Shown here: piece after piece, positions 9,525 through 46,085 of the stretch
How the letters are laid out: each line of letters opens with the position of its first letter
Numbering within the stretch: position 1 is the stretch's first letter
DNA from: an uncultured Spirochaetia bacterium
GTDB lineage: Bacteria > Oederibacteriota > PGYV01
Direction of reading: 5' to 3'
Assembly: GCA_964417645.1 (NCBI GenBank)
Contig: CAYQIS010000003.1
Location: forward strand, 19,568-83,567
Length of the DNA stretch: 64,000 nucleotides
The notes under the pieces: model-generated
What the model was told of the DNA's origin: nothing
Seen by the model: only the letters and a program-made list of their open reading frames with translations
Databases searched by the model: none
Position numbers and translations under genes: made by a program

Positions 9525-11384
9525 TTAATTTAAAATACCTGAATAATCTTCAACACTTCCTTTTGATTCAAAACATTCTATTATTTCCATTCCTTTTTTG
9601 GACAGCTGCGGCGTTTTAAATTTTTTAAGCTCCTTGTCAAAAAATTCATACAGCATTTTTTCTCCGAATTGAAATGCTTCTTTACCGACTTCAGGCTGAA
9701 GACTTACATCTATAAGAAAATCAGGAATTGATATTCCCTCAACTTTAAGTTCTTTTCTTATATAACCAAGAAGCGGGGTTCCGGCTTTTTTTAATTCTGA
9801 TTCTTCAAATTTTCTTCCGCCTCTTCTTGCAAGATATTCCCTTACAAACCACTGCGGCATAAAACCTGTTTTCCAGGCGCCTACATATTGATTCGGAAAA
9901 AGAACATTACACGTGTTATTATTTTTTATAAATTGTTCCAGAAGCATGTTGGCGTGTTTAACCGGACTCCCTGTTAAAAACGGACCGTAAGTTCCGATTC
10001 CTTCACTGCTCATTCCTTCGGAACTTATTATGCTTGGATTATCATGTCCGCGGGGCGCAACCAGTCTCCATAACCAAGCCAATGCGGGAGGTAATATGTG
10101 AAAAAAACCTATTATTCCATAAGAAGGATTTTTGGAAGTGCAAGGAGGCGTTCTTATGCCAAAACTTCTGTAGTCTATTGCCGTTTCGGAGTTCTCAATA
10201 TTTGGAATAAGCTCTCTGGGAAAAATCACTCTTGGATTGGGGCATCTTTTTGAAGGCGCGTCTTCAATATGTTCCCAAATAAGGCATGTTGATCCTGCAA
10301 CAGCCTGAATATTAAGAAATATCATGGGCTTTGACGGATGTATGCACATTTTTTCAAAATGAGGATTCATTCCGTAATGTTCAATATGATTTACTCTTAC
10401 AAACCAAGCATTTTCCGCGTCCATTACATGAAGTTTTCCGTCATTTTTTTGTATTGAAGTGTGACAAATTGACATATCATCGGTAACAGGATGTATTTCA
10501 CATTCATTTATAAGTGACGTTTCTATCACCTTTCCGTCAATTATATTCTCGGCAATTCTCATTTTGCTGTTTTCGGTGTGCTCCATATATTCGTTCATCT
10601 CGCTTTTTCCGCCGCCGCTTGCGCCTTCATGAAGTATTGTTATTGAATTATCATAAGGGGTAATAAGTTTTGTTGAAGACGCATGAAGAGTAAGCCATCC
10701 TTCTTTTTCCCCTATGGAAAGAAGCGCCCCATATATGCCTTTTTTTGCGCTTGGCCCCGGATAAAGATTATAGGAAAAAATTTCATAAAGATTTTCTGTT
10801 CTGTTATGAACCACCACCTGTTTTCCTGAAAAATGTGTATGTCTGAACACAGGGGCCAAATATATTATTATTTTTGGAGAAAATTCACGGTTTAAATCCG
10901 CTTCATTCATTAAATTCTGTAAATCAGCAACGGCCATGGCAAAAAAAGCGCAGTTAAGAGGACCAACAAAAAGAGACTGAATTTTTACCGGATCCCTTCC
11001 CGTTATAAAAGGCATTACAATTACATCTGTTTCAGAAAACCATTTAATTGTATCTTTTCTAAAATCAGGAAAATCCATTTTAAACACATCTTTAAATCTT
11101 GGTTTGTCGGATTCAAATTCATCCCCTACAAATGTACAATTTGGATCCCTTCTTCTCATATATGGTTCCTGATAATTTACCGCAACACCGTTTTTACATA
11201 GTGTAACATCGGCTTCCTTAAACTTTTTACCCTGTGATGTTTCGGAAAAAACTTCAAACTGATTCAAACCGTTTCCTGTTGCAAGTTTTATAAGGTCTTC
11301 CCTGCTTTTTGGAAAAACGCAGGATTTTGATTTAAGCAGTGCATCCTTTAATTCTTTTGGTATGTTCCAGTCATTTATACTCAT
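9525..11384 (-). CDS. DUF4914-family protein (PEPCK-like fold)
   Basis: NYQEPYMRRRDP, P-loop HEGASGGGKSE, TDDM, AENAWF, CPNPR motifs; SD GGAGG. Confidence 0.8.
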   Translation of the reverse strand: MSINDWNIPKELKDALLKSKSCVFPKSREDLIKLATGNGLNQFEVFSETSQGKKFKEADVTLCKNGVAVNYQEPYMRRRDPNCTFVGDEFESDKPRFKDVFKMDFPDFRKDTIKWFSETDVIVMPFITGRDPVKIQSLFVGPLNCAFFAMAVADLQNLMNEADLNREFSPKIIIYLAPVFRHTHFSGKQVVVHNRTENLYEIFSYNLYPGPSAKKGIYGALLSIGEKEGWLTLHASSTKLITPYDNSITILHEGASGGGKSEMNEYMEHTENSKMRIAENIIDGKVIETSLINECEIHPVTDDMSICHTSIQKNDGKLHVMDAENAWFVRVNHIEHYGMNPHFEKMCIHPSKPMIFLNIQAVAGSTCLIWEHIEDAPSKRCPNPRVIFPRELIPNIENSETAIDYRSFGIRTPPCTSKNPSYGIIGFFHILPPALAWLWRLVAPRGHDNPSIISSEGMSSEGIGTYGPFLTGSPVKHANMLLEQFIKNNNTCNVLFPNQYVGAWKTGFMPQWFVREYLARRGGRKFEESELKKAGTPLLGYIRKELKVEGISIPDFLIDVSLQPEVGKEAFQFGEKMLYEFFDKELKKFKTPQLSKKGMEIIECFESKGSVEDYSGILN

Positions 11385-11393
11385 TTTTCCTCC

Positions 11394-11439
11394 AAAAAAA
11401 AAATCCGGTTAAAGCGGATTAAACCGCAATAACCGGATT
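11394..11439 (-). terminator. intrinsic terminator (attenuator) directly before the SD of the DUF4914 gene
   Basis: Minus strand AATCCGGTTA-TT-GCGG-TTTAAT-CCGC-TT-TAACCGGATT, then a T-run, then GGAGG. Confidence 0.8.
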
Positions 11440-11511
11440 ATTATATGACAAGCCCGTTTTAAACGTGCTTCTCATCAAATCTTCCAGATAATTTTAACTT
11501 ATCATTTAAAA

Positions 11512-11540
11512 TTTATATACCATAAATGTTTTATTGTCAA
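11512..11540 (-). promoter_or_regulatory. sigma70-type promoter for the DUF4914 leader
   Basis: TTGACA-N17-TATAAA on the minus strand. Confidence 0.75.
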
Positions 11541-11551
11541 ATGTTTATGAT

Positions 11552-11917
11552 CTAATTTATTTCTATTTTTTTATCCATTGTAAAAACTATTATTCTTTCG
11601 CCTGTTTTTGTGCTTATATCGGTGTGCATGGAGACAACCCCGGCACCCGATATCTCTTCTATGTTTTTTTCAAGCATTTTTCTGGAACTTTCAAGAAGTC
11701 TTACCCTTGTCTGTTTCACCAGCATTCTGCCTTCGCCGGGGTCTTTTGCCAATGTTTTTTCGGCTGCGGTAAGAACACCGGTTAAACGAACAAATATAAT
11801 ATCATCCAAAATTGTGACATTTGTATCTTCAGGGCCGCGGCCCATATGTTCTTTTTCAAATTTTATTATATATTCCCTGATTTTTGCTTCTGTCTGGCCT
11901 TTTGATAATTTTTTCAT
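11552..11917 (-). CDS. DUF2294 / MpsC-family protein
   Basis: EKEHMGRGP, LTAAEK.L, VKQTR..L, HTDISTKTGER motifs typical of the family. Confidence 0.85.
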   Translation of the reverse strand: MKKLSKGQTEAKIREYIIKFEKEHMGRGPEDTNVTILDDIIFVRLTGVLTAAEKTLAKDPGEGRMLVKQTRVRLLESSRKMLEKNIEEISGAGVVSMHTDISTKTGERIIVFTMDKKIEIN

Positions 11918-11924
11918 GATTTAT

Positions 11925-11953
11925 ATTTTATATTTCATATTCTTTACAGTCAA
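11925..11953 (-). promoter_or_regulatory. promoter of the DUF2294 gene (near-leaderless transcript)
   Basis: TTGACT-N17-TAAAAT; 7 nt separate the -10 from the ATG; no SD. Confidence 0.5.
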
Positions 11954-12054
11954 TATTGTTTTCAAATAAAACATCCCGTTCCATTTTTAAACACATTTTG
12001 TTTTAAGGTTTAACATAATCAAAAAATCTTTATTAAATATATGGTTTTTTTGTC

Positions 12055-12070
12055 TGGCATATCTTATGCA
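12055..12070 (+). promoter_or_regulatory. putative sigma54 (-24/-12) promoter of hsp20
   Basis: TGGCATATCTTATGCA has GG and GC at consensus spacing. Confidence 0.55.
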
Positions 12071-12115
12071 TATTATTTTATGGAAGTTAAAAAAAATTTA
12101 CAGGAGGTGGGTTTT

Positions 12116-12538
12116 ATGAAACTCATCAGAAGGTCTGATTTTGCAAGACCAACGCTCTTTGGGGATCTGTTTGACGATTTTTTCAGAACAGATATCCCGG
12201 CAGTACGTTCCATGATGCCCGCTATTGACATTGTGGAGGAAAAAGATCATTACACCATTAAAGCTGATCTCCCGGGCATGAACCAGAAAGACATTAAAGT
12301 TGAACTTGATGAAGGAGTTTTAAGAATTTCCGGAGAGAGAAACGAAGAGAAAAAAGAACAGGACAAAGACAATCACTATCGCTACTATGAAAGGTCTTTT
12401 GGAAGCTTCGAACGCCGTTTTGTGCTTCCAAGGGAAGTAAAAGAAGACGCAATAGAAGCAAAGTATGAAAACGGTGTTCTGAAAATCACAATTCCAAAAG
12501 CGGAAACAAGAAAAGCCAAAGAAATAGCTGTTAAATAA
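12116..12538 (+). CDS. small heat shock protein, Hsp20/alpha-crystallin family
   Basis: PAIDI.E, ADLPG, ERSFGSFER.F.LP, A.YENGVL.I.IPK; start moved to 12116 behind AGGAGGT. Confidence 0.93.
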   Translation: MKLIRRSDFARPTLFGDLFDDFFRTDIPAVRSMMPAIDIVEEKDHYTIKADLPGMNQKDIKVELDEGVLRISGERNEEKKEQDKDNHYRYYERSFGSFERRFVLPREVKEDAIEAKYENGVLKITIPKAETRKAKEIAVK

Positions 12539-12649: not shown

Positions 12650-13057
12650 ATGAATAAAAAAGAAGAAAATGTTGATTTTTTAAATCTTATTCTTATGCTT
12701 AATCAAAATGCTCTTATATATCTTGGAGAATCCCCGCGTTTTATAGGAGGAATAAAAAAATCAAATCTGCCTCTTGCCCGACAGACAATAAATATGATTA
12801 AAGCAATATCGGATAAAACCCGCGGAAATCTGACAGCCGGAGAATCAAAACTTATATTCAGAATACTCGGAGAACTTCAAAAAAAATATGTTATGGCTTC
12901 CGGACTTATGAAACCGGAAACATCCGAAGATAAAAAGGCACAGGCGGTAAAAAAAGTGGCGGAAAAACATGCGGAAAACCTTGATGAGGTTCTTGACAAA
13001 CTTAAAGACAGCGAACTTGCGGAAATGCTGGATGAATTAAAAAAGAACGCCAAATGA
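12650..13057 (+). CDS. DUF1844 domain protein
   Basis: ALIYLGE...NLPLARQTI.M...TRGNL pattern. Confidence 0.7.
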   Translation: MNKKEENVDFLNLILMLNQNALIYLGESPRFIGGIKKSNLPLARQTINMIKAISDKTRGNLTAGESKLIFRILGELQKKYVMASGLMKPETSEDKKAQAVKKVAEKHAENLDEVLDKLKDSELAEMLDELKKNAK

Positions 13058-13557
13058 TATTGCCGGAAAAAATAAACAATATTTCCAAAATAGGGCTGAT
13101 TTCAGACACTCATGTACCTTCACGTTTAAGGTATTTGCCTTCGATTATTCATAAAATATTCAATGATGTTGATGCAATAATTCACGCCGGCGATTTTACT
13201 TCAAAAGATGTAATAACGGAACTTGAATCTGTTGCCCCATTATTCGGAGTTATGGGCAATATGGATCCTCATGAAATTCATTTACCTCAGCAAAAAACAA
13301 TTCTTGTAAACGAAAAATTTCTTTTTGCAATCTGCCATGGAGCAGGACTGCATTCAACAACCGAAGAAAGAATGTTTAATAAATTTAAAGAAATAAGACC
13401 TAATGCAATAATTTACGGGCATACACATATTCCAAAAATATCAAAAAAAGAAGAAATATTGCTTGTTAATCCGGGAAGTTTATGCTCTGCTGAGCCAAGT
13501 GTCGGTCTAATAGTTTTTAATGGAGATATTTTAATACCTGAAATAATTAAACTGTGA
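13054..13557 (+). CDS. metallophosphoesterase, YfcE/MJ0936 family
   Basis: SDTH, HAGD, GNMD, CHG, GHTH, NPGS motifs. Confidence 0.9.
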   Translation: MILPEKINNISKIGLISDTHVPSRLRYLPSIIHKIFNDVDAIIHAGDFTSKDVITELESVAPLFGVMGNMDPHEIHLPQQKTILVNEKFLFAICHGAGLHSTTEERMFNKFKEIRPNAIIYGHTHIPKISKKEEILLVNPGSLCSAEPSVGLIVFNGDILIPEIIKL

Positions 13558-13617
13558 AATTATTTCAACAATATTATAAAAAATCAATAAAAAACCTTAT
13601 TTTTAAAGGATTTTTAT

Positions 13618-13658
13618 TGTGAATTATATGTGGAAAATTGTGGATAACATGTGCAAAT
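13618..13658 (-). promoter_or_regulatory. cluster of four tandem DnaA boxes
   Basis: Plus strand TGTGAATTA, TGTGGAAAA, TGTGGATAA, TGTGCAAAT starting at 13618, 13629, 13639, 13650. Confidence 0.7.
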
Positions 13659-13687
13659 CCAACGAAACATAACGAAAACTTTAAATA

Positions 13688-14884
13688 TTACTTCTTTTTT
13701 CTTTTTTCAAGTTCTTCTTTTCTTTCTTTTTTTATTTCCGCTTCTTCTTTTTTATACTGTTCCTTAACTTCGCCTTCCGTTTCTTTTTCATCTTCCTTAA
13801 CATCCATTATTTTCTCATGATATTCTCGTTTCCATTCATCCTTGGTTTCTTTTACTTTATTTTTCATAACAGGGGCTGTTTTTGTCTCCTTTTTTTCATG
13901 TTTGCCGTAATCATATACTTTTTCTGAATCTTTTATGCATTCAGGTTCTTTTTCATTTACCCGCGTTTTTTGTGCAATTACCGTCTTCACTGGAATTTGT
14001 GTATAAGTTGCGCCTGGCTGCAAAGGCGTATCAGAAGGCTTAACAGGCACAGGCGTACATGTTTCCTGAATTGAAAGCGGAGTATTCGTATATTCAGGCA
14101 ATATCCGGGTACTTGTTGAAATCGGAATATCAACAGCTGTGTTTGTCCCTGAAGCTTGAGCGGATTTTAATATAGCTGTTGGTGATGCAGCAATATAAAT
14201 TATATACGGCGTTTGAGTTGCCGTTGCAGTAACAATTATATATTGAATTTTATTTTCCTGTGACGTTGCCTGCCCGGCAGGCAAAGGAAATGCATTATTT
14301 AGCTGAGGAACCGGGGTTGGAGAAAAAACAGCTGTTAATGTTGCCGTTGGTGTATAAACATATTTTCGCGTTATGTATTTTTCACCGTTTATATATTTGC
14401 CTTCTTCCATAAGCTGGCCGCCTTCATAATATTCTTTGTATTGTCCTGAAAGTTTCCCTTCCGAATACCAATATTCACTTTTTAAATTTCCGTTTTGATA
14501 ATATTCTTTATATTCGCCTTCAAGGATATCGTTTTTATAAGTGTATTGTTTCCAGATTACCCCGTTTATAAAATAAACATTTTGTATAAAATTAAACTGA
14601 TTGTTCAATATTATTGCTTCCGATTTCAGATTATTTCCGTTTTCATAATATTCCCTGGCAATACCATTTATGTTCTCGCCTGTTTTTATAAAGCCTTTAC
14701 CTTCTTGAGCTGTCCAAACAGCAATTTGGACCTGATTTTTATAAAAAATATATTTACCCGAGCTGTAAACATAAACAATTCCGGGAACGGCCCCTTTATA
14801 GGGGCAATCTTTATATTCAGGAGTGCATGATATAAATAAAAAAATTGTTAAAATCAAAAACAAAGAAAGTATATTTTTTTTCAT
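13688..14884 (-). CDS. lipoprotein with MORN-variant (YwqK-like) repeats, Thr/Pro-rich linker and charged C-terminus
   Basis: Lipobox FISC; G.YKEYY.NG.L repeats; TPTAT/TP-rich segment. Confidence 0.75.
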   Translation of the reverse strand: MKKNILSLFLILTIFLFISCTPEYKDCPYKGAVPGIVYVYSSGKYIFYKNQVQIAVWTAQEGKGFIKTGENINGIAREYYENGNNLKSEAIILNNQFNFIQNVYFINGVIWKQYTYKNDILEGEYKEYYQNGNLKSEYWYSEGKLSGQYKEYYEGGQLMEEGKYINGEKYITRKYVYTPTATLTAVFSPTPVPQLNNAFPLPAGQATSQENKIQYIIVTATATQTPYIIYIAASPTAILKSAQASGTNTAVDIPISTSTRILPEYTNTPLSIQETCTPVPVKPSDTPLQPGATYTQIPVKTVIAQKTRVNEKEPECIKDSEKVYDYGKHEKKETKTAPVMKNKVKETKDEWKREYHEKIMDVKEDEKETEGEVKEQYKKEEAEIKKERKEELEKRKKK

Positions 14885-15324
14885 CTCCTGCCTCCTTTCT
14901 TTGTTTTAAAATTTTTTTTTGATATAACATTTCCGTTTATGTCATATTCCGTAAATGTTCCATAAGGCTCTCCGTTGACATAATAGCCCTCTTTCTTAAG
15001 CATACCTGTTTCATAATATTCAAAATAATTATAATTAAGTTTGTTGTCTTTATAAATCATTTCCGCCATCAAAGAACCGTCGGGATAAAATTTTCTTACA
15101 ATTCCGTTTATGGCAATTCCTTCCCGCTTTATGCTTCCGTCTCTTCCTATTATCCATGTCGCCACTTCTTTTTTTCCCTCATAAAATATAATCTTATCCT
15201 CTGCTTCCTGCATCCATGTTCCCTGATATTTTAAATAAGGTTTTGGCGGACAGTTATATACCGTATATCTGCAGGATGAAAATGCCAATAAAATCATAAT
15301 TAAAACAAAAAATATTCTTGCCAT
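14881..15324 (-). CDS. small lipoprotein with MORN-variant repeats
   Basis: Lipobox FSSC; FYPDGSL / YYETGML repeats; start moved to 15324 behind GGAGG. Confidence 0.7.
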   Translation of the reverse strand: MARIFFVLIMILLAFSSCRYTVYNCPPKPYLKYQGTWMQEAEDKIIFYEGKKEVATWIIGRDGSIKREGIAINGIVRKFYPDGSLMAEMIYKDNKLNYNYFEYYETGMLKKEGYYVNGEPYGTFTEYDINGNVISKKNFKTKKGGRR

Positions 15325-15346
15325 ACATCCTCCGATTATTTTATTT

Positions 15347-16540
15347 TCAATCAATGCTTTTTCTTAGTACCGAAAAGGATTCTATGTTGCCTGTTTTAAA
15401 CTTTATTTTATAGACGGATTTTCCTGATGTTTTGGTTACTTCAATGCCGCTTTCATCAAAAATACCCGTCACTTCGTCATTTTTCTTTCCTTTTGGCGAA
15501 AAAATTTCAATTTTGTCTCCTAATCTTATTACATTTCTCACAATAACTTCGGCTTCTTTAACTCCTCCTGCGATTGTATGTCCAAGGTAAACAGAATCTG
15601 CGCTATAATCGGATGTGGCGTAATTTTGCCTTATTTCTCCGTCATCAAAATAAAAACCTGTTGTATATTCCCTGTGGGAAATCTTATTTAATTCGCTTTT
15701 TAAAATTTCATCGGCATTAAAGCCGGCATCGATGCATTTTCTGTATGCATTGGTTACAGCCGCAACATAATGAATTCCTTTCATTCTTCCTTCTATCTTA
15801 AAACTTTCTATACCGGCCTCATAAAGTTCGCCGAGTTTTTCCAGAAGATTCAAATCTTTTGAATTAAATATATATGTCCCTCTTTCATCTTCAACTACGG
15901 GAATTTTTTCTCCGGGTCTTTTGGCTTCAATCAATTCATAGCTCCATCTGCACCCTTGCGTGCATTCTCCGCGGTTTGCATCACGTCCTGTCATATAATT
16001 GCTTATAAGGCATCTGCCCGAATATGATATGCACATTGCACCGTGAACAAAAGCTTCAAGTTCAATATCAGGAAGTTTTTCTTTTATTTCCTTTATTTCT
16101 TTAACATTTAATTCTCTCGCCAAAATAACCCTTTTTGCGCCCAATTCTTTCCACATCTTAACTTCCATATAGTTAAGATTATTTGCCTGAACAGAGACAT
16201 GTATCGGCAGACTTATTTTTTCTTCCCTTATTATTTTAAGCACTCCCAAATCTGAAATAATAATTGCATCGGGCTTTATTAAGTCAAGAAACTTTAAATG
16301 CTGTCTTATTTTTGGAATATCCGAATTGCGTGGAAAAATATTTACTGTCATATATATTTTTTTTTTGAATGAATGAGTATATTCAACAGCTTCTTTGAGT
16401 TCTTCTTCCGTAAAATTATCCGAAAAATTGCGAAGCCCTGTACCCTTGCCAGAAGCATAAACCGCATCAGCTCCAAAAGCCAAAGCAAATTTTAATTTTT
16501 CAAAGTTTCCCGCGGGAGAAAGCAATTCCGGTTTTGACAT
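15347..16540 (-). CDS. U32 peptidase family protein (TrhP-like tRNA hydroxylation)
   Basis: PELLSPAG, GADAVY, HGAMCISYSGRC, KIEGR motifs. Confidence 0.88.
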   Translation of the reverse strand: MSKPELLSPAGNFEKLKFALAFGADAVYASGKGTGLRNFSDNFTEEELKEAVEYTHSFKKKIYMTVNIFPRNSDIPKIRQHLKFLDLIKPDAIIISDLGVLKIIREEKISLPIHVSVQANNLNYMEVKMWKELGAKRVILARELNVKEIKEIKEKLPDIELEAFVHGAMCISYSGRCLISNYMTGRDANRGECTQGCRWSYELIEAKRPGEKIPVVEDERGTYIFNSKDLNLLEKLGELYEAGIESFKIEGRMKGIHYVAAVTNAYRKCIDAGFNADEILKSELNKISHREYTTGFYFDDGEIRQNYATSDYSADSVYLGHTIAGGVKEAEVIVRNVIRLGDKIEIFSPKGKKNDEVTGIFDESGIEVTKTSGKSVYKIKFKTGNIESFSVLRKSID

Positions 16541-19150: not shown

Positions 19151-19165
19151 ATTATCCTTTTTCAA

Positions 19166-19253
19166 GGGACACCGGCAACACCCCGGAAAATCCTTTTACC
19201 GCTGCTCCCTTCCGGGCCTGACGGGGTTCAAGGCTGCCGGGTGTGCCGGGCCC
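19166..19253 (-). ncRNA. ffs: small signal recognition particle RNA (4.5S)
   Basis: Minus strand contains the CCGTCAGGCCCGGAAGGGAGCAGCGG domain IV inside a long GC-rich hairpin; canonical position upstream of dnaX. Confidence 0.92.
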
Positions 19254-19257
19254 ATTT

Positions 19258-36201: not shown

Positions 36202-36471
36202 TAAACAAAATCCTCCTTATAAGGTTTTTAACAATATAAATTATATTTATATTTTTATTAAATAATTTTAGATATAGTTATTATATTGTTAATAAGTGTG
36301 ATAACTTAAAAAAAATCTTAATTTAATAAAACTTTTTATTTTTGTTAATGTGAAATATTACTGTATTTTAATACAAAAAAACTGTTTTATCCACAAAAAA
36401 ATGGACAGTATTTTTTATCAACAGGATATCAACATGATAACAGGAAAATATCAACAAAATATGGCAAAAAA
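36202..36471. other. probable oriC segment (dnaA-dnaN intergenic)
   Basis: Very AT-rich; TTATCCACA at 36387-36395, TTATCAACA at 36415-36423, ATATCAACA at 36426 and 36448; AT-rich DUE-like stretch near 36235-36295. Confidence 0.7.
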
Positions 36472-37812
36472 TCATTTTTTAATTCTGTTTATTATTTCGT
36501 TTATTTCTGTTTTAAATTTTTCGTCTGATTTTATAAGATTATCAACTTTTGATATTGCATGCATCACGGTTGTATGGTCTTTTCCGCCAAAATACTGTCC
36601 TATCTGCATTAATGAATAATTTGTCAATTCTCTTGTTAAATACATTGCAACCTGTCTTGCCATTGCAATATTCTCGTGCCTTTTTTTTGAAAGCATTTCC
36701 TGAACTTTTATATTATAAAAATCGGAAACAACAGTCTGAATAAAATCAACGCCTATCTTTTTTTCCTGCTCAAATTTTGGATTTCTTATTTTTATTGCTT
36801 TTTTTGCAAGTTCAATTGTCATTTCTTCCGGTTTGCCTTCAGAAAGCTGTTTAAAGGTGACAAGAGTGCCGTTTAATTCTCTGATATTGCTGTTTATATG
36901 TTCAGCGATGAAAGCTATTACATTATCAGGGACTTTGATATTTTCTTCTTTGCATTTTTGATATAAAATTGCGACGCGGGTTTCAAAATCAGGCGGCTGA
37001 ATGTCAACAATCATTCCAGCGGAAAAACGTGATGTCAAGCGGTCTTCAATTTCAAGCTGACTTGGCGCGACATCGGAAGTGATAACTATTTGTCTGTTTA
37101 AATTTGTAAGTTCATTGAATGTGTGAAAGAATTCTTCCCTGGTTTTTTCGCCTTTTTGAAGGTATTGGATATCATCAACCAAAAGCAAATCAGCGCTTCT
37201 GTAACGATCCCTGAATTCTTCCATTTTGTTGTCTCTCATTCCCTGAACGGCTTCATACAAAAATTTTTCCGCTGTCACAACCATTATTTTTTTTGAAGGG
37301 TCTTTTTCATGCACATAGGTGCCTATGGCGTGTAAAAGATGAGTTTTTCCAAGACCGACGCCGCCGTAAATAAAAAGAGGATTATAGCTTTGACCCGGAG
37401 CTTCCGCAACGGACATACATGCGCCATGGGCAAAACGGTTTCCTGTGCCTATAATAAAATTATTAAATCTGAAATTTGCGTTTAAAGAAGGAATATTTCC
37501 TGAGGAAAAAAGGGGCAGGGGCATTTGTTTTACTTCAATGGTAATTTTTTCCGATATGTCTTTTTTTGATTCCTTTGCGGTTTCAATGTTTATTGAAGGT
37601 TTAAAGTTAAAAGTGTTTTCAAAAATATCTTCAAGCTCGTTTTTATATTTATTTAATGTTTTAACATGCAGATTGCTTTTTACAAAAATATTAAGCTTAT
37701 TGTCGGCTTCATTATAAACCGCATCGGATCCTTCAAGCCAAAGTGAAAGACTTTGATTTTCTGTTTTTACTTTTTCAAGCAGATTTTGCCAAATAAATTC
37801 TTTTGATTTCAT
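36472..37812 (-). CDS. dnaA: chromosomal replication initiator DnaA
   Basis: NPLFIYGGVGLGKTHL, DDIQ, EEFFHTFN, RELNG, GGKDHTTV. Confidence 0.98.
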   Translation of the reverse strand: MKSKEFIWQNLLEKVKTENQSLSLWLEGSDAVYNEADNKLNIFVKSNLHVKTLNKYKNELEDIFENTFNFKPSINIETAKESKKDISEKITIEVKQMPLPLFSSGNIPSLNANFRFNNFIIGTGNRFAHGACMSVAEAPGQSYNPLFIYGGVGLGKTHLLHAIGTYVHEKDPSKKIMVVTAEKFLYEAVQGMRDNKMEEFRDRYRSADLLLVDDIQYLQKGEKTREEFFHTFNELTNLNRQIVITSDVAPSQLEIEDRLTSRFSAGMIVDIQPPDFETRVAILYQKCKEENIKVPDNVIAFIAEHINSNIRELNGTLVTFKQLSEGKPEEMTIELAKKAIKIRNPKFEQEKKIGVDFIQTVVSDFYNIKVQEMLSKKRHENIAMARQVAMYLTRELTNYSLMQIGQYFGGKDHTTVMHAISKVDNLIKSDEKFKTEINEIINRIKK

Positions 37813-38049
37813 ATAATAAAACCTTTCTTTTTAATTAACAACTTATCCACAAAATTTTTTAATATTATTGAACACATAATTTACCTTAAATATAAGGCAA
37901 AAAATAAGTTTTCCACATAATTTAAATATTTTATTAACAATATTCCAAATTATTTTTTGTCATATCAAAGATTTTAAAATAAAAGTTTTTACAGCTTTTA
38001 ACGCGTTATTATATATCATAAGGTCCGGCTGTCAAGGCATATTTTTATA
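37813..38049. other. dnaA upstream region with DnaA boxes (oriC part or autoregulation)
   Basis: TTATCCACA at 37843-37851, TTTTCCACA at 37909-37917; AT-rich. Confidence 0.65.
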
Positions 38050-38625
38050 TCAGTATCTCGTTAATGCAGTAATTTTTACGGCATCATAATTGAAGGATAT
38101 TTTTATATCAGGGGGAAAGACATTATGAAGCCAAAAAAAGTCCGCTGCGGTATATCCAAGCAGAACAGCGGTTATTGAAGACATTATTATGCATCCTGAC
38201 AACCTGTCTTCAACGGATTTTTTCTTGTTTAACAGGTATTTGTAATTATCGTATGTTGTATTGTTAACTTCATCGTAAATTTTGTTATAGTTATTTATTT
38301 GCATCAAATAATCACTCCATAAAAAAGCCGTTAAACCGGCTGATATTGAGTCTGAAATTATCAGAATTCCAGCGGGTATATTGTCTGAGGGAGTGCTTTC
38401 ATAAACGTTGCTGCCTGTATTTGTGACTCCGGCTGGAGAAGGTTTAAACGAGTTAATAATGGCGTCAATTATCGTGCCGTTTGATTTGGAATCAGAGGCG
38501 GCGTTAATTGTGGAGGAAACAGGTTCTGTCTGCGCTGTTAAAGTTAAGGCTGCAGGCACATTTTCTGAATATATCAGCGAAACAGCCGCCAGAAATATGA
38601 ATGCGGATAAAAAAACTTTTTTCAT
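38050..38625 (-). CDS. hypothetical exported/membrane protein
   Basis: Signal peptide MKKVFL..., two hydrophobic helices; SD AGGAG. Confidence 0.65.
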   Translation of the reverse strand: MKKVFLSAFIFLAAVSLIYSENVPAALTLTAQTEPVSSTINAASDSKSNGTIIDAIINSFKPSPAGVTNTGSNVYESTPSDNIPAGILIISDSISAGLTAFLWSDYLMQINNYNKIYDEVNNTTYDNYKYLLNKKKSVEDRLSGCIIMSSITAVLLGYTAADFFWLHNVFPPDIKISFNYDAVKITALTRY

Positions 38626-38644
38626 TTTAGACTCCTTAAAAAAC

Positions 38645-38674
38645 AAACTCCGGGTAAATTTTTACCCGGGGTTT
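38645..38674 (-). terminator. terminator-like hairpin after the OMP pair
   Basis: AAACTCCGGGTAAA...TTACCCGGGGTTT inverted repeat. Confidence 0.65.
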
Positions 38675-38689
38675 TTATTTTTAATTTTT

Positions 38690-40012
38690 TTATTTCCAGT
38701 TATAAACCAAAGCCACACCCTGATTTAAATCAACAGATGCATTTGATATGAAATTAGGCCCTGTTATAAATATTTCAGGGTTAATATACATATCAAGCCT
38801 TAAATCGCCTATTACGCCTGTTAATCCGAATGCATAGGTCATAAAAGGTTCAATAGTCTGTGAATCAGATACAGAATCAAGAGTGAATTTGGTTGTTTTG
38901 GAACCGTCTGCCGCCTGGTAGCCGTTTTTATAGCCGTCAAGGTTAAGAATATCCATCCCTGCGCCGGCATTAAACGACCAAGTTTCATTAAGCTTGCCTG
39001 TTACTGCAATATTTAAAGGAACAGAAACAAAGGAATACTGGTCATAATCATCATTGTAATAACCTTTATAGTTATACACAAAATCTTCATAATAATAAAG
39101 CGGCATTGTTCTTCCCATAAGCGACAAACCGGTTGCAAGCCTGACTTTTAAAGTGTCGCCCGCCTTAATTGTTTTTCCGACAAGCGCTTTAAAATTAAGC
39201 TCGCTGTTGTAATAAACATTCTGATAGTCGTCCCACCATTGACTGGTTCTTGTTATGTCCCAGCCTTGAAGCCAGTTGGCCATGGCAACAACATAAAGGT
39301 CATCGGAAAAATTCAATCTGCCCGCAATATCAAAGTTCATTTTTGATGTTTCATAAGTATATGTTGAATTCCACTGTGAAGAACTGTTGTAGTAATTGTC
39401 TTCCTCAACATTGTTATAAAACATAAACCCAAAAGCAAGGTCAACAGGCATCCCTATTTTTAACGAAGACCCAAGTCTTGCGCTGAAATACTGGGAATTG
39501 TCAAACCCGTCGTGCGGCTATGCGCTGTAATTGTTAAGATAATCATAACTTGAATTATTACAGCCGTATTGAAGGCCTGCGCCTACAGGAATACCCCCAA
39601 AAGTATTTGCATACGAAAGACCGACAATATTGCTTAAATTGGTTGAACCTATGTAAATAAGCGGATACAAAAGTGTTGGCTGAACAGAAACGCCTATTAC
39701 GCCAAGGTCTGTATTCAAGGTCACTGAACCTGAAATATTATCTCTTGTGAATGGATCATTGTTGCTATCAAGATAAGTATAGAAATCATAGATATATTCA
39801 AACATTACCGAATTGCCAAGAGACGGAAGATTTGAAACAAACACAGAAACATCAGAAACGCTTCCGGGAATAAGCACACCGGGATAATGCGCTTCGGCAG
39901 CTTCCTGTGTAAGTGTCCTTATTCCGCTTTCGGCAACGGGCTTGGCTGCAGCGGCAAATACGGGTGCTGCCGCAAGAACAGCCGTTAAAAGAATGGCCAA
40001 AATCTTTTTCAT
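38690..40012 (-). pseudogene. outer-membrane beta-barrel-like protein interrupted by one in-frame TAG (39518-39520)
   Basis: ORFs 39518-40012 and 38690-39451 share one frame with no other stop between them; the joined product aligns by eye with the paralog at 40074-41357. Confidence 0.8.
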
Positions 40013-40033
40013 TAAATCCTCCCGTTGTTTTAT

Positions 40034-40062
40034 ATCACCCGCCCGGTAAACGGGCGGGTGAT
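40034..40062. other. intergenic 12-bp stem-loop between the OMP paralogs
   Basis: ATCACCCGCCCG-GTAAA-CGGGCGGGTGAT; no U-tract on the coding (minus) strand. Confidence 0.7.
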
Positions 40063-40073
40063 TTTACCGCTTT

Positions 40074-41357
40074 TTATTTCCACTCGTAAACGAGCGCTAT
40101 GCTGTTGTTAAGGTCATCGCTGTAATTGGAAATAAAGTTAGGACCTGCCATCAGAATTTCAGGGTCAATGTACATATCTATCCTGAAGTCGCCGATTTTG
40201 CCTGTTAAACCGATTGAGTAACCAAGATATGGTGATATATTTATGTCTGTATGTATGTTATTATCTTTGTAAGAAGGCTTCTGTGTATTAGGATTTTCGC
40301 TGTATTTTGTTACATAATTATTAAAGTTTATTGCGTAGAAGCTTGCGCCTGCGCTGAATGTCCATGTTTCATTAAGTTTTCCTTTTATTGCAATATTTAC
40401 AGGAACATAGCAATAAAATTCATTCCATGTTGTTGTTTCATATGTTTTTACGCCTGTGTTTTTATTTTCTGTAACCTTGTCATCGGATGCTGTTACATTT
40501 CCCAAAAGACCTGCTGAAAGAAGGACAGAAAGTGTGTCAGTTGCTTTTATTGTTTTTCCAATAAGAGCGGAAAAATCAAGCGCATTGTTGCTGTTTGTAA
40601 AAACAGAGTTTGTATCGCCTGCATCCGTAAAATCGCCGTCATTGTTTGCGTCTGTTTTTGTAATATTATTTACTCCGCCGTTTTTAAAACCAAGCCCTGC
40701 GCTTACAAGAAGGTCTTTGGTGAGCGCAAGCCTTGCGTCAGCTCCAATTCTCATATTTCCATAGGATGTGGAGCTGTCACCAACTATTGTTCCTGATGCA
40801 TTTTTATTTTTTGTGGCATCGCCGGAATTTATTGTTCCAAAGTTAAGAGCAAGGTCAAGACCTGTAAGGCCAACAGTTCCTTTTAAACCCAAATACTGAT
40901 AAAATTTTGAATATTTATCAGACGAGTTTGATGCATAAAGGGCAGGATTCTTGTTTTCGTCATATAAAGAATTAACACCATACAAAACAGCAACACCAAG
41001 TTTTCCGAAATTCATGTCTCCGGCCCATGCCAAACCAAGCACCATGCTTGGATAGTCCGGATCTATTCCGTCAAGATAAATATATTCGGTATGGCTTGCT
41101 GATACTGCAAATGTTCCCATGTCTGTTTTTAATGAAACAAGGCCTAAAAAGTCTCCTCCGCCTAAGTCTTCAATTAAAGCCGAATTGCCAAAAAGAGCGA
41201 TGTCTGTTACAAATGTGTTTGCGCCTGTAAGGCTTCCGGGATTAAGAACGCCGGGATACAAGGCCATTGATGATTCCTGCGTGTAGCTTGTAATTCCTGC
41301 GAATGCGCCTGAAGTTAAAAGCGCAAGTACTGCAAAAACAGCCAAAAATTTCTTCAT
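40074..41357 (-). CDS. outer-membrane beta-barrel-like protein
   Basis: Signal peptide; amphipathic strands; C-terminus GPNFIS...ALVYEWK. Confidence 0.7.
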   Translation of the reverse strand: MKKFLAVFAVLALLTSGAFAGITSYTQESSMALYPGVLNPGSLTGANTFVTDIALFGNSALIEDLGGGDFLGLVSLKTDMGTFAVSASHTEYIYLDGIDPDYPSMVLGLAWAGDMNFGKLGVAVLYGVNSLYDENKNPALYASNSSDKYSKFYQYLGLKGTVGLTGLDLALNFGTINSGDATKNKNASGTIVGDSSTSYGNMRIGADARLALTKDLLVSAGLGFKNGGVNNITKTDANNDGDFTDAGDTNSVFTNSNNALDFSALIGKTIKATDTLSVLLSAGLLGNVTASDDKVTENKNTGVKTYETTTWNEFYCYVPVNIAIKGKLNETWTFSAGASFYAINFNNYVTKYSENPNTQKPSYKDNNIHTDINISPYLGYSIGLTGKIGDFRIDMYIDPEILMAGPNFISNYSDDLNNSIALVYEWK

Positions 41358-41546
41358 TACGAGTACCCTCCAAATTTTTTTTTGCGGGACTGATTGACTT
41401 TTAGGTTCCGGTTTGCCCCATTTATTCCGGGACCTTTTTTCGCTTACTTTTCACCTCCCTTTTGGGGATTTTAATGAAACATAAAGCTAAAAAAGTTTTA
41501 ATCAGTATTTCCGGTAAGATTATTCCTCAATTCCCAATATGAAAAC

Positions 41547-41575
41547 ATATTATCATATGGCTGAATGGCTGTCAA
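41547..41575 (-). promoter_or_regulatory. sigma70-type promoter of the OMP pair (about 185-nt leader)
   Basis: TTGACA-N17-TAATAT on the minus strand. Confidence 0.65.
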
Positions 41576-41688
41576 GGATATGTACAGTATAAAATTCATC
41601 AAGGTATTGATATGCAGGGTGTAGATGTGTTAATATTTGACCGGATATAAGGGATAAACAGTAAAAAATTTCAGGAGGCAAAACAATT

Positions 41689-42108
41689 ATGGAAAAAGGG
41701 CTTAAACTTTTACTTGCAGGGGTTATAGCGGGAATAATACTGTTTGTTGCTGCAGGTATATCTTATAGGTATACTGGGGAAATAGTTGACCCTTCATTAA
41801 GAGCTCTTTTTAGGGAAACGGTTTCAATGAAGTGGTTTCATAAGCTTCTTTTATTAAACGCAGGAATGGGGATTATGATGGCGGTATTTTTTGCCCTTTT
41901 GCAGAACGGTATACCGGGTCAGGGCATGGCAAAAGGGATAATGTGGGGTTTTATAATATGGTTTATAATTGTTACCCAGCCTCTTATTTTTCAGCTTGTA
42001 AACGGACAGTTTTCATCAGAAAAACTTTTAACATGGCTTACACAGGGTCTTGTAAGCTATGTTGCCGCAGGGCTGTCAATATCCTTGATTTATAAAACAG
42101 GAAAGTGA
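41689..42108 (+). CDS. small 4-TM membrane protein
   Basis: Four hydrophobic segments; SD AGGAGG. Confidence 0.7.
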   Translation: MEKGLKLLLAGVIAGIILFVAAGISYRYTGEIVDPSLRALFRETVSMKWFHKLLLLNAGMGIMMAVFFALLQNGIPGQGMAKGIMWGFIIWFIIVTQPLIFQLVNGQFSSEKLLTWLTQGLVSYVAAGLSISLIYKTGK

Positions 42109-42962
42109 TGTTTAAAAAAGCAAAGGATATTCTTTTTTCACTGAGGCCTTCAAGGCATATACATTACACTGTTTTATTTATAATCGGATATCTTGCATAT
42201 AATGGTTTTTCTTTTGAAAATAAATGGCGCTTTATTCAGGGCATTGCTGTAATAAACCTGCTTTTTGCTTCCGCGCTGCTTGTTAACAGCATCTATGATG
42301 CTGAAATAGACGGAATAAACAGAAAACCAAACATGGTGAATATAATAAAAAGCCATGAAAAAAACTGGTTTACTCTTTACGGTTTTTTGCTTTTTATTCT
42401 TTTTGGAATTTCTCTTTTAAACGGAATAACACAGTTTATTGTTTGTTTGATTCTTTCTTTAATGTCTTATTTTTATTCCGCGCCTCCTTTAAGATTAAAA
42501 AAGATTTTCATTTTAAATCTTTTGATTATTGCTGTGGCTGCAACAGGAACGGTATTCTTGGCATATATATGGACAGAGCCTGAAAAAGCATTTCCCACTT
42601 TTAATTTTAAAGCCGCCGTAATGATGACAATTCTTCTTGCGGCGGCTTTCAGCGTAAAAGACGTAAATGATTATGAAGGCGATTTAAAAGGCGGCATAAT
42701 TACCATAATGACATTGTTCGGAGAACGTAAAGGAAGATATATTACGGCCATTCTTGCGGCAGCGGCTTATTTTTTAACGCCTTTTGCAATAAATAAATTT
42801 AATTTAACGCCTTATTCTTTTGCCGCCGGCATATTGACTTTTTTGGCGGTAATTTTTGGGAAAAAAGTAAACGAGACTTTTGTTTTTATTGTTTTATATG
42901 TTTTTCTGGGTATATATCTTTTTTTTAATCCCATTCAACCAGAAATGCAATACCGCCCGTAA
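42105..42962 (+). CDS. UbiA-superfamily prenyltransferase
   Basis: NSIYDAEID and KDVNDYEGD Asp-rich motifs; YSAPPLRLK. Confidence 0.85.
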   Translation: MMFKKAKDILFSLRPSRHIHYTVLFIIGYLAYNGFSFENKWRFIQGIAVINLLFASALLVNSIYDAEIDGINRKPNMVNIIKSHEKNWFTLYGFLLFILFGISLLNGITQFIVCLILSLMSYFYSAPPLRLKKIFILNLLIIAVAATGTVFLAYIWTEPEKAFPTFNFKAAVMMTILLAAAFSVKDVNDYEGDLKGGIITIMTLFGERKGRYITAILAAAAYFLTPFAINKFNLTPYSFAAGILTFLAVIFGKKVNETFVFIVLYVFLGIYLFFNPIQPEMQYRP

Positions 42963-43452
42963 AATCAAGTTCGGTTACCCGGATATTTTGGGCGCTTGTG
43001 TTGACAATGCCCTGCTTTAGCCATCCAAGCAGCCTTTTTGAAACAAAACGGTCATCTGGAAATCCGGAAAAAAACATTTTAACTTTGTTGTCCCTGATAT
43101 GTTCTATGCGCACCGCCGCTTCCGTATAATATGAAGAAAGAATTGCGGGCGCGGTATTTATCAAACCGTAAGGCGGCATATTTTTAAAAAGTCTGTGTGT
43201 TGTTTCCATTGCCTGGTTTGCGGAATATGCCCCGGTTTCTTCCGATATTCTTCCGTCATTAAAACCGAAATATTTTTCAACTTCGGCAAGAAGATAAATA
43301 AATTCTTCAACAGGAATCCATTCAAGAGCGTTTGAGGAGGATAATTTTTTGATTTTAGATGCGGAGTTGATAAAGTGATTTGTTTTTTCGGTTCCGAATT
43401 TGTTTTTTAAAAAATTGAATGTGTTAACAAAAAGAATGCCTTTTGCTTGCAT
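42925..43452 (-). CDS. DUF2378/V4R-related small ligand-binding protein
   Basis: KG.LF...L...G, W.P, G...A pattern resembles this family. Confidence 0.5.
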   Translation of the reverse strand: MQAKGILFVNTFNFLKNKFGTEKTNHFINSASKIKKLSSSNALEWIPVEEFIYLLAEVEKYFGFNDGRISEETGAYSANQAMETTHRLFKNMPPYGLINTAPAILSSYYTEAAVRIEHIRDNKVKMFFSGFPDDRFVSKRLLGWLKQGIVNTSAQNIRVTELDFTGGIAFLVEWD

Positions 43453-43551
43453 TTTTACCGCCGGCCGGTTAAAGTTTTAATATCATAATGCCTGAAAAGA
43501 TTCCGGCAGAAAAATAATATCACATAATATTTTGGAAGTCAAATAAAGCCG

Positions 43552-44862
43552 TTATTCGGCTTTAATTTTTTGGAAAAGGCCCTCTCCCGTTATTTCTTTC
43601 ATTTCCTTGATGGCGCAAAGTTCGCCGCACATTGTGCAAACTTCATTATTGCCGGGTTTTGAACTTTCTCTCATTTTTCTTGACAGGGCGGGATTAATTG
43701 AAAGGGATATTTGTTTTTCCCAGTCAAGTGCTTTTCGCGCTTTTGCCATTTCATTGTCCCATTCAATTGCGCCCGGTATTCCCTTTGCGATATCAGCGGC
43801 GTGAGCGGCAATTCTTGAAACTATAACGCCTTCCCGCACTTCTTCTATATCTGGAAGCTTCAGGTGTTCTGCTGCGGTCACATAACACAAAAAGTCGGCG
43901 CCGCTCATTGCTGCCAAAGCGCCCCCTATGGCTGATGTTATATGGTCATATCCGGGCGCTATATCGGTGACAAGAGGCCCAAGAACATAAAAAGGCGCGT
44001 TATTGCATAATTTTTTTTGTATCTGCATATTTGTTGCTATCTGATTTAAAGGCACATGGCCGGGGCCCTCTATCATAACCTGCACATTTTTTTCATATGC
44101 CCTTTTTGCAAGTTCGCCGAGAGTTATAAGTTCTTCAATTTGCGCCCTGTCGGTTGCGTCAGAAAGGCAGCCGGGGCGCATGCCGTCCCCTAAAGACAGT
44201 GTTACATCATATTTATACGCAATATCAAGCAGTCTGTCATATTGTGTAAAAAGAGGATTTTCGGTTTTATTTTTCATTATCCATACGGCAAGCAGTGTTC
44301 CTCCGCGGCTTACCATATCAAGCATTCTTCCCTGATTGATAAGTGTGTCTATTGAACGCTTTGTAACTCCGCAATGGACAGTTATAAAATCAATTCCTTC
44401 TTTTGCCTGATTTTCAATTGCCGTAAACAGGTCTTCTTCCGTCATTTGTTCAAGTTTTCGGCCGCTTTTTATTACATCGATAACCGCCTGGTAAACTGGA
44501 ACAGTGCCTATTGGAATTGTTGATTTTTCGGTTATTTTTCTTCTTATGTTTGTAATATCACCGCCGGTTGAAAGATCCATTACAGTATCGGCCCCGGCTT
44601 CCGTACAAACACGCAGTTTTTCAAGCTCATTTTCAACGGAACAAATATATTCCGAACTTCCTATGTTGGCGTTTACTTTTGTTTTAAGCCCCCTGCCAAT
44701 ACCGGTTGCTTTTATATTTTTATGATTTATGTTTTTTGTTATTACTATTTCCCCGGCGGCAATCCTTTTTACAAGCTCGTTAATATTAAAATTTTCATTT
44801 TTTGCAACTTCCGCCATTTCAGGCGTTATTATGCCTTTTTTTGCGGCTTCAAGCTGTGTCAT
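43552..44862 (-). CDS. thiC: phosphomethylpyrimidine synthase
   Basis: KVNANIG, MDLSTGGD, SRGG, LGDGMRPG, EGPGH, YDHI, C-terminal CTMCG.LC. Confidence 0.92.
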   Translation of the reverse strand: MTQLEAAKKGIITPEMAEVAKNENFNINELVKRIAAGEIVITKNINHKNIKATGIGRGLKTKVNANIGSSEYICSVENELEKLRVCTEAGADTVMDLSTGGDITNIRRKITEKSTIPIGTVPVYQAVIDVIKSGRKLEQMTEEDLFTAIENQAKEGIDFITVHCGVTKRSIDTLINQGRMLDMVSRGGTLLAVWIMKNKTENPLFTQYDRLLDIAYKYDVTLSLGDGMRPGCLSDATDRAQIEELITLGELAKRAYEKNVQVMIEGPGHVPLNQIATNMQIQKKLCNNAPFYVLGPLVTDIAPGYDHITSAIGGALAAMSGADFLCYVTAAEHLKLPDIEEVREGVIVSRIAAHAADIAKGIPGAIEWDNEMAKARKALDWEKQISLSINPALSRKMRESSKPGNNEVCTMCGELCAIKEMKEITGEGLFQKIKAE

Positions 44863-45290
44863 ATATTTTTACCCGCCTTAAGCATGAATTTTTTCTCCAA
44901 AACATATGTTTCATACCGTAATTCTTTAAAAAGAAAGGAAGCTTTTTTATTTATAAGTTTTGATATTTCTTCAAGAACACGAAGGCTTTCCTGCGACCTT
45001 TTAAAATTTGAAAGAATTATATCGTAAAGATTTTTACGGTTAAATTCCGATTTTTGTTTAATATGTCTTCCTTTATCCGAAGCGCTGTTTCTTGATTCCA
45101 GATAATCTGAAATTTCATGACCAAGTTTTTTTGATGCAAAAGTTATTCCGTGCCTTATTTTTTTACTCATTGAAGTAAGGGTTTTATCTTTAAAAATAAA
45201 CCTTGATATGTCTTCTGTAACCCGCAGCCCTTCCCTTGAACGGTTGACATTTGCGTCTATAACCGCAAGAATTCCTTTCTTTATCTCCAT
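44859..45290 (-). CDS. stand-alone ThiD2-type domain (as found N-terminal to some ThiE proteins)
   Basis: DANVNRSREGLRV.ED, N..RSQESLRVLEE, LRY..Y. Confidence 0.75.
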   Translation of the reverse strand: MEIKKGILAVIDANVNRSREGLRVTEDISRFIFKDKTLTSMSKKIRHGITFASKKLGHEISDYLESRNSASDKGRHIKQKSEFNRKNLYDIILSNFKRSQESLRVLEEISKLINKKASFLFKELRYETYVLEKKFMLKAGKNI

Positions 45291-45511: not shown

Positions 45512-45514
45512 TGT

Positions 45515-46072: not shown

Positions 46073-46085
46073 TCTTCTTCCTCCG

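Follow-up and report, generated by a model that had tools for sequence, protein, structure and literature searches.

A phased array of predicted DnaA boxes between convergent genes

We analysed a 64-kb stretch of contig CAYQIS010000003.1 (assembly GCA_964417645.1), the whole of which is called the window below, with a focus on an array of four sites that resemble DnaA boxes and lie within the 130-bp spacer separating two convergent genes. The four sites share one orientation and together span 41 bp, with start-to-start steps of 11, 10 and 11 bp and gaps of 2, 1 and 2 bp:

13618-13626, minus strand: frame site 1, TAATTCACA (plus strand TGTGAATTA); one mismatch to TTWTNCACA, two to TTATCCACA; weak predicted DnaA box
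13629-13637, minus strand: frame site 2, TTTTCCACA (plus strand TGTGGAAAA); no mismatch to TTWTNCACA
13639-13647, minus strand: frame site 3, TTATCCACA (plus strand TGTGGATAA); perfect consensus DnaA box, no mismatch
13650-13658, minus strand: frame site 4, ATTTGCACA (plus strand TGTGCAAAT); one mismatch to TTWTNCACA, three to TTATCCACA; weak predicted DnaA box

The initial annotation of this stretch had described four same-orientation boxes, two of them exact and two with one mismatch, at steps of 11/10/11 bp between convergent genes, and each of these elements matches the sequence.

Single boxes are not enriched in the window, with 15 exact matches to TTWTNCACA compared to 10.8 expected. The array is the sole phased chain of at least three boxes in the window, and a chain of three was reached in none of 300 dinucleotide-preserving shuffles of it. 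Since the chain of four is unique in the window and no shuffle arrived even at three, the array is real and far from a chance arrangement. At four sites in 41 bp, it is also denser than the surroundings of dnaA, as had been pointed out initially: four boxes are spread over ∼137 bp of the dnaA-dnaN spacer and three over ∼97 bp upstream of dnaA, i.e. 3–4 sites over about 100–140 bp. The distance to dnaA (36472-37812, minus strand), originally put at about 23 kb, is 22.8 kb in the window and ∼20.7 kb in the record coordinates of the 1.2-Mb contig. The further statement that no gene start lies nearby holds for called genes. The only open reading frame (ORF) that overlaps the array, 13638-13820 on the plus strand, runs antisense to the Lys/Glu-rich tail of the MORN_2 lipoprotein gene, and lineages without that gene have no equivalent of this ORF.

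Conservation of the array across lineages

We compared the array in eleven lineages that carry a DUF1844-phosphoesterase operon next to it (the window, L001, L012, L014, L016, L017, L018, L023, L026, L027 and L028) and whose DnaA proteins, where known, are 58–85% identical to the window DnaA. In all eleven, three or four TGTGnAWAA sites were present in one frame with steps of (11)/10/11 bp, and in all eleven they lay on the sense strand of the phosphoesterase gene, just past a hairpin and T run. Across these lineages, sites 1 to 4 had on average 2.8, 0.45, 0.73 and 1.45 mismatches to TTWTNCACA, compared with ∼5.6 for random 9-mers from the same loci. Site 1 was box-like (at most three mismatches) in 8 of the 11, and the site 4 position held a perfect TGTGGATAA in L012, L014, L016, L018 and L023. 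Indeed, the perfect boxes vary by lineage, being sites 2 and 3 in the window, sites 3 and 4 in L012, and sites 2 and 4 in L014 and L023. With a twelfth lineage (L101, see below) included, a perfect TTATCCACA was found in 10 of 12 lineages, and the array was intergenic with all of its sites co-oriented in 12 of 12. Conservation in relatives had been named at the outset as a way of checking the element, and the outcome was clear, with the exact frame found at the syntenic place in 12 lineages.

A logo built from 25 sites of seven lineages reads T25 G25 T24 G22 N A23 W(T17/A8) A19 A18, which is the reverse complement of TTWTNCACA and is variable just at the N and W positions of the consensus. The sequences of the gaps are free (TA, T, CA, A, CC, AA, G, AT, C, GA), whereas their lengths are constant. 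No tandem pair of exact boxes other than the array was detected in any of the 12–21 kb syntenic loci, and none was detected across 72 unrelated phosphoesterase loci (∼390 kb). The array spacer of the window aligned to that of L001 at z = 15, compared with z = 2–3 for the spacers around hsp20. The gene order of the clade is dnaA-dnaN-gyrA-histidine kinase-NosD-like-DciA-gyrB-Crp-like-HAD-cyclase-3D-, continuing further on with signal recognition particle (SRP) RNA-dnaX-ybaB-recR-peptidase U32-array-phosphoesterase-DUF1844.

The position of the array could be separated from its neighbouring gene. L101 has lost the DUF1844-phosphoesterase operon, and its Crp...dnaX-ybaB-recR-U32 block is intact. 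Next to U32, the spacer sequence is ATATTCACA tg TTATTCACA t AAAATCACA aa TTATCCACA, which is again an 11/10/11 frame, in unchanged orientation relative to U32 and with an A-run/hairpin remnant alongside. Conversely, in L021 and L022 the operon lies between suf and che genes, and we found no box pair within 2.5 kb of it. As it is kept in the operon-less L101 and absent at the relocated operon, the array goes with position and not with gene, and it appears to be tied to the chromosomal neighbourhood ∼21–23 kb from dnaA rather than to a particular gene. An outgroup with dnaX-ybaB-recR-U32 in other surroundings (L102) has no array. In L012, DUF1844, the phosphoesterase gene and the array lie on a 1.2-kb segment (11307-12400) that has been turned round in place with respect to U32 and hsp20, and the orientation of the array relative to the direction of replication is therefore flipped in this lineage.

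Repeats of other kinds were also noted. A near-perfect inverted repeat of ∼110 bp (GTCATTGCGAGGAG...CTCCTCGCAATGAC) lies between the array and U32 in L014 (11225-11335) and could be either a miniature mobile element or one large hairpin. Short tandem repeats of the GGCAGCTTGG type occur in the otherwise unrelated spacers of L001 (8762-8800) and L018 (∼11330-11370).

The genome is absent from the GTDB representative set, and proteins of the window were found just on contigs of hot-spring and microbial-mat metagenomes, for which a search for RNA runs returned none. The nearest named homologues of DnaA and peptidase U32 share 55–60% identity with them and are labelled Candidatus Goldbacteria/Goldiibacteriota. 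The syntenic GTDB contigs (L021–L028) are labelled Goldbacteria, FCPU426, Spirochaetia and Methylomirabilis, so that the labels of metagenome-assembled genomes are inconsistent here. Judging from these matches, the host appears to belong to an uncultured Goldbacteria/FCPU426-like lineage. A literature search returned no paper mentioning DnaA together with Goldbacteria.

DnaA and the identity of its predicted boxes

The dnaA gene and the two regions next to it comprise the following features:

36202-36471, no strand: dnaA-dnaN spacer; probable unwinding part of oriC; 17% GC, with a conserved perfect box and the same layout in L020 and L019
36472-37812, minus strand: dnaA (Pfam); the DNA-contact motif of domain IV and the arginine-finger and sensor-2 arginines of domain III are kept
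37813-38049, no strand: dnaA-upstream region; promoter-like TTGACA...TATAAT and conserved boxes TGTGGAAAA and TGTGGATAA; second oriC cluster or autoregulatory cluster

Domains III–IV of the window DnaA align to B. subtilis DnaA (8btg, E = 6e-106) and to E. coli domain IV (1j1v). In the alignment, the window protein retains ARQ...GGKDHTTVMHA, DRLTSRF and IRELNG. We take these to contain, in E. coli numbering, the base contacts R399 and D433/H434/T435/H439, R281/R285 (box VII and the arginine finger), and the sensor 2 residue R334, respectively. As the contact, arginine-finger and sensor-2 motifs are all kept, a canonical box and ATP-dependent head-to-tail oligomerisation of DnaA are to be expected. 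Furthermore, the box variants of the array (TGTGGATAA, TGTGGAAAA, TGTTGATAA and TGTTAATAA) recur on either side of dnaA, in the dnaA-dnaN spacer and in the upstream region, where their positions are conserved, and these shared variants were seen at the dnaA flanks of the window, of its close relative L020 and of the distant L019. By their logo, the array sites are very probably DnaA boxes that DnaA would bind.

Terminator-like hairpin, CGAAA repeat and neighbouring genes

The array is flanked by two genes, a hairpin and a short direct repeat:

13054-13557, plus strand: Metallophos_2 (YfcE-like) phosphoesterase gene (Pfam); last gene of the DUF1844-phosphoesterase operon, its 3′ end abutting hairpin and array
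13587-13617, both strands: hairpin followed by a T run; core CCTT-loop-AAGG at 13595-13609; weak and intrinsic-terminator-like
13663-13679, plus strand: direct repeat CGAAAC-ATAA-CGAAAAC, adjoining site 4; conserved accessory element without a known binder
13688-14884, minus strand: MORN_2 lipoprotein gene (Pfam), converging on the array

The flank between the phosphoesterase gene and the array (13558-13617), described initially as very AT-rich, has a GC content of 11.7% compared with a window mean of 35.6%, which places it among the lowest 0.24% of 60-bp windows. Its hairpin has a fold energy of −5.4 kcal/mol on the plus strand and −6.0 kcal/mol on the minus strand and was not called by a strict terminator scan. 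Among the orthologous hairpins, those of L001 (−16.6 kcal/mol), L012 (−9.7 kcal/mol) and L018 (−6.9 kcal/mol) are stronger, and that of L017 (−4.2 kcal/mol) is weak. T runs follow the orthologous hairpins, and the stem persists despite altered stem lengths and sequences. The AT-rich flank appears to be the terminator hairpin at the end of the phosphoesterase operon, and in the window it can be read on either strand. We also asked whether the CCTT...AAGG hairpin might be a dedicated protein site that recurs in the dnaA-upstream region and rejected this idea, the motif being common in the window (19 occurrences, 11 expected).

On the other side of the array, CGAAA[AC] followed by CGAAAAC at a step of 10–13 bp lies 3–15 bp past site 4, on the same strand, in 6 of the 12 lineages (window, L001, L014, L017, L018 and L026). 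The repeat is not enriched across the window, which leaves its conservation beside the array as the sole argument for it, and it does not match the IHF consensus. Nor was WATCAANNNNTTR, the IHF consensus, found in the array module of the window or of five of the six other lineages scanned; the match in L016 overlaps a box. Contiguous boxes such as these leave no space for an IHF site among them. No GATC/SeqA sites were present in the array module.

The adjacency of phosphoesterase gene and array is retained in 11 lineages. The MORN_2 gene faces the array in the window, L001 and L011 only, and elsewhere this place is taken by peptidase U32 or hsp20, suggesting that the MORN_2 lipoprotein gene is an insertion confined to the window/L001/L011 sub-lineage. 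In these three, a pair of MORN_2-repeat lipoprotein genes lies between U32 and the array (window 13688-15354, L001 9970-11594, L011 2145-3149).

Other candidate functions for the spacer were tried and rejected. For an RNA element or 3′ untranslated region, there was no Rfam hit of note, RNAalifold gave no conserved pairs over the array, and the gene on the antisense side varies. For a promoter, a minus-strand TATAAT (13623-13628) has no −35 element and is not conserved in relatives, and a promoter scan of the window gave no excess (7 compared to 4.9 expected). In lineages with long spacers, we found no conserved ORF or RNA past the array.

Two further spacers of the window were well conserved in L001. 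The DUF4914-MpsC spacer (window 11385-11551, L001 6828-6997) is 79% identical (z = 14), far more alike than neutral-looking spacers nearby, and may hold a regulatory element. A bacterial small SRP RNA (Rfam RF00169, 70 bits) lies at 19159-19257 on the minus strand, directly upstream of dnaX, and explains why the spacer upstream of dnaX is 94% identical in L001.

The array and the origin of replication

The initial annotation had offered two readings of the array, a titration or regulatory site and a part of a split or displaced origin. Tandem co-oriented boxes beside an AT-rich stretch are compatible with an origin, and the orientation of the boxes towards this stretch is that of the unwinding module (PMC8287927). 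However, the most AT-rich part of the window (5% GC over 60 bp, 14% over 250 bp) is the dnaA-dnaN spacer, which also has conserved boxes, and the dnaA-upstream region comes second; the AT-rich stretch at the array is just 60 bp long and appears to be a terminator hairpin.

GC skew leads in the same direction. Measured on the plus strand, minus-strand genes had a skew of −0.154 up to the array, −0.155 from there to dnaA, and −0.051 to the right of dnaA; that of plus-strand genes was +0.056 on the left and +0.139 to the right of dnaA. This is what a transcription component of ∼±0.10 would give together with a replication component of ∼±0.05 that changes sign at dnaA, and per-gene skew showed no change at 13.6 kb. 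We also searched for the unwinding module itself, defined as at least three DnaA-trios (3′-NAN-5′, typically GAT) that are no more than 16 bp from the box and 3′ of it in the TTATCCACA orientation (PMC8287927), the strand of the trios being confirmed by the C. difficile example (PMC7561715). Beside the array, the best run in the window was two trios. Runs of at least three NAN trios on the required side were absent in the window and in 8 of the 11 lineages, and two of the three lineages with such runs had no strict trio. Trio runs of four and five were seen at boxes flanking dnaA.

Because the skew switches at dnaA, the AT-rich box clusters are at dnaA, trios beside the array are not conserved and its flank looks like a terminator hairpin, the array does not appear to be an origin, and that it forms part of a split, displaced or second one is the least probable of the explanations we considered, close to negligible. 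The idea of a split or displaced origin can therefore be dropped. The titration or regulatory reading stands as far as the sequence goes, supported by the DnaA-box logo, the DnaA contact motif and a frame conserved at an origin-proximal place in 12 lineages. For annotation, the lesson would be that a dense phased box array beside AT-rich DNA need not be an origin.

Between the two conserved boxes upstream of dnaA, we noted a CCTTA-loop-TAAGG hairpin (37884-37897 in the window). Probable bipartite origins flanking dnaA were also seen in relatives, at 1806-2066 and 3408-3675 in L020 and at 9714-10000 and 11345-11606 in L019. In the window, all genes for 14 kb beyond dnaA (38050-52104) are on the minus strand, with a skew near zero, and gene orientation switches only at 52.1–52.4 kb. 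These genes would be head-on to replication forks from an origin at dnaA.

Proposed role of the array and alternative explanations

On balance, the most likely role of the array is to control when replication starts, as sites of a kind known from model bacteria do, an explanation that we hold to be somewhat better than an even call. A function in replication control, taken by itself and argued by analogy, is evenly poised, and we infer from the same analogy that the control would be negative. In the mechanism that we propose, successive contacts of DnaA domain IV would be spaced by roughly a helical turn and lie on the same face of the DNA, ATP-DnaA would bind the two exact central boxes cooperatively, and head-to-tail AAA+ contacts would extend binding to the weaker outer sites, giving an oligomer of three to four protomers on duplex DNA. 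We propose a head-to-tail oligomer because co-oriented boxes 1–2 bp apart have the geometry that supports such oligomers. No unwinding would take place at the array, as the boxes are followed by neither DnaA-trios nor an unwinding element. Lying ∼21–23 kb from oriC, the site would be duplicated within seconds to minutes of initiation, and the array could then lower the pool of initiation-competent DnaA, either by sequestration or by stimulating the hydrolysis of DnaA-bound ATP in the oligomer, which is the part played by datA in E. coli and by the origin-proximal clusters of B. subtilis and Streptomyces. Access to the array may be tuned by the adjacent hairpin and CGAAA repeats, by way of read-through transcription or of a partner protein. 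That strong sites have changed places while the frame stayed rigid is consistent with selection acting on the whole oligomer.

Several points weigh against a replication-control site. Four sites could titrate few DnaA molecules per copy, which would be a weak effect unless it is catalytic. The array module has no IHF-type site, whereas datA requires one, and its boxes, with 1 or 2 bp between them, stand a little closer together than the E. coli optimum of 2–3 bp (PMC11317965). The uniqueness of the array was counted in the 64-kb window and in syntenic loci of 12–21 kb. The orientation of the array to the terminator hairpin is fixed, and the array follows the operon through the L012 inversion, which could point to a transcription-related role. 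Finally, the host is uncultured, and its DnaA binding and function are argued from sequence and analogy.

A transcription-related role is the main rival, and one that we regard as unlikely but worth keeping in mind. The array would then be a DnaA-dependent roadblock or insulator, in which bound DnaA stops RNA polymerase that has passed the weak operon terminator or that arrives from the convergent recR-U32(-MORN) unit, with the consequence that termination or convergent-transcription interference would depend on DnaA status. In line with this, the array always lies 1–25 bp past a hairpin and T run that is weak in several lineages (such as the window and L017), keeps one orientation to that hairpin even where both have moved with the inverted operon, and sits between convergent genes in most lineages. 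There are precedents, too, at the asnC terminator (Schaefer & Messer 1988, as listed in PMC11317965) and in the attenuation of read-through at datA (PMC10950094). However, the array of L101 persists without the operon, L021 and L022 have the operon and no array, a roadblock would need no more than a single box, which leaves the strict four-site 11/10/11 frame unexplained, and the gene facing the array varies among lineages (MORN, U32, hsp20 or none). A protein other than DnaA that binds tandem repeats at ∼10.5-bp phasing is also conceivable, for example a winged-helix regulator of the OmpR/PhoB type, for which direct repeats one helical turn apart are typical; the likeness to DnaA boxes would then be coincidental. 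Such repeats suit the spacing of the array, and the phased pair of CGAAA repeats that adjoins it may be bound by a non-DnaA protein. We nevertheless consider this improbable for the array itself, whose 25-site logo agrees with the DnaA consensus position by position, free positions included, which holds a perfect TTATCCACA in nearly every lineage and shares its box variants with the dnaA flanks, and which has no conserved promoter or downstream gene for a regulator. A reactivation site like DARS, at which ADP release from DnaA would stimulate initiation, is more improbable still. The array does resemble DARS in being a non-coding cluster of DnaA boxes, and it is about as small as the DARS1 core (PMC5742627). 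However, one box has to be inverted in DARS, and every site in every lineage is co-oriented, without an inverted box in or beside the frame. The mention of DARS among the initial regulatory readings therefore fails on geometry.

Returning to the control of replication start, a more elaborate version of this explanation is that the hairpin, the four-site frame and the CGAAA repeat make up a minimal self-contained DnaA-control module of undescribed design. Taken with all of its steps, this is speculative and rather less probable than a roadblock. A tetrameric DnaA oligomer would be loaded or stripped by terminator read-through, with the help of a CGAAA-repeat-binding protein as a functional stand-in for IHF at datA, and its action on DnaA-ATP would be catalytic, in a phylum possibly devoid of Hda, SeqA and IHF. 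The turnover of perfect sites in the rigid frame would be the signature of selection on the oligomer and not on single sites.

Comparison with known systems

The control of initiation by DnaA boxes outside the origin has been worked out in few bacteria, namely in E. coli (datA and DARS), B. subtilis and Streptomyces, and its design rules are unclear. The array is unusually small and regular, and its 12 natural variants hold the spacing and swap the strong sites. It would thus be a convenient minimal substrate for finding the protomer number, the spacing and the site strengths that a regulatory DnaA oligomer needs, and it would allow a test of datA-like control without IHF.

In E. coli, datA (the DDAH element) inactivates DnaA-ATP, gains from its early duplication and lies just downstream of a terminator, read-through of which modulates datA (PMC5742627, PMC10950094); DnaA binding inside datA in turn attenuates the read-through (PMC10950094). 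The essential datA boxes and the low-affinity arrays of E. coli oriC are co-directional, and boxes with 9 or 20 bp between them do not allow domain III contact (PMC5742627). The array resembles datA in its co-directional boxes, which imply a head-to-tail ATP-DnaA oligomer, in lying nearer to oriC than to the terminus, and in its place directly downstream of a terminator, that of the glyVXY operon in the case of E. coli. It differs in that datA spans 183–262 bp with an IHF site between boxes 2 and 3, whereas the boxes of the array are contiguous and without an IHF consensus. Furthermore, the array is 20 times closer to oriC than datA, and the place in which one might look for a cofactor site is taken by the CGAAA repeat.

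In vivo, E. coli DnaA binds almost only to tandem box pairs 2–3 bp apart, and a change of the gap abolishes binding (Stringer, Fitzgerald & Wade 2024, PMC11317965). The array is like these double boxes, and like the low-affinity arrays, in combining co-oriented 9-mers, small gaps, and strong and weak sites, a layout for which cooperative binding is tied to exact spacing (PMC11317965, PMC5742627). Unlike the double boxes, it has gaps of 2, 1 and 2 bp, comprises four sites instead of a pair, and lies neither at oriC nor at a promoter. With the basal unwinding system of oriC (PMC8287927), it shares tandem co-oriented boxes, gaps of at most 3 bp and an AT-rich stretch on the trio side; it differs in having no conserved trios and no skew switch, and in that its AT-rich stretch appears to be a terminator hairpin. 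DARS1 and DARS2, which regulate DnaA activity, are small non-coding DnaA-box clusters as well, yet the DARS core has three boxes with box I opposite to II and III, whereas the array has no inverted box. At the asnC terminator, where a complex of DnaA and its box blocks RNA polymerase (Schaefer & Messer 1988, as cited in PMC11317965), DnaA boxes likewise lie at the 3′ end of a transcription unit. That case rests on a single box and is gene-specific, unlike the array, whose four-site frame is kept even where the upstream operon has been lost.

The DnaA-box clusters (DBCs) of B. subtilis restrain initiation in a manner dependent on position and on dosage relative to oriC, their deletion leading to early or over-initiation, and DBCs have been predicted to be common near oriC in bacteria without SeqA and Hda (Okumura et al. 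2012, PMC3245932); that study was unable to tell what separates active from inactive DBCs. Like these DBCs, and like the oriC-proximal cluster of Streptomyces coelicolor as it is cited there, the array is non-coding, intergenic, outside oriC and close to the origin. The B. subtilis DBCs have more boxes over a longer stretch, and several of them overlap promoters and regulate neighbouring genes, whereas the array has just four contiguous sites in 41 bp, a strictly fixed frame, no promoter and a function that we infer. Taken together, the array appears to belong with the DnaA-box clusters already known from outside origins, and comes from a candidate lineage that has gone unstudied.

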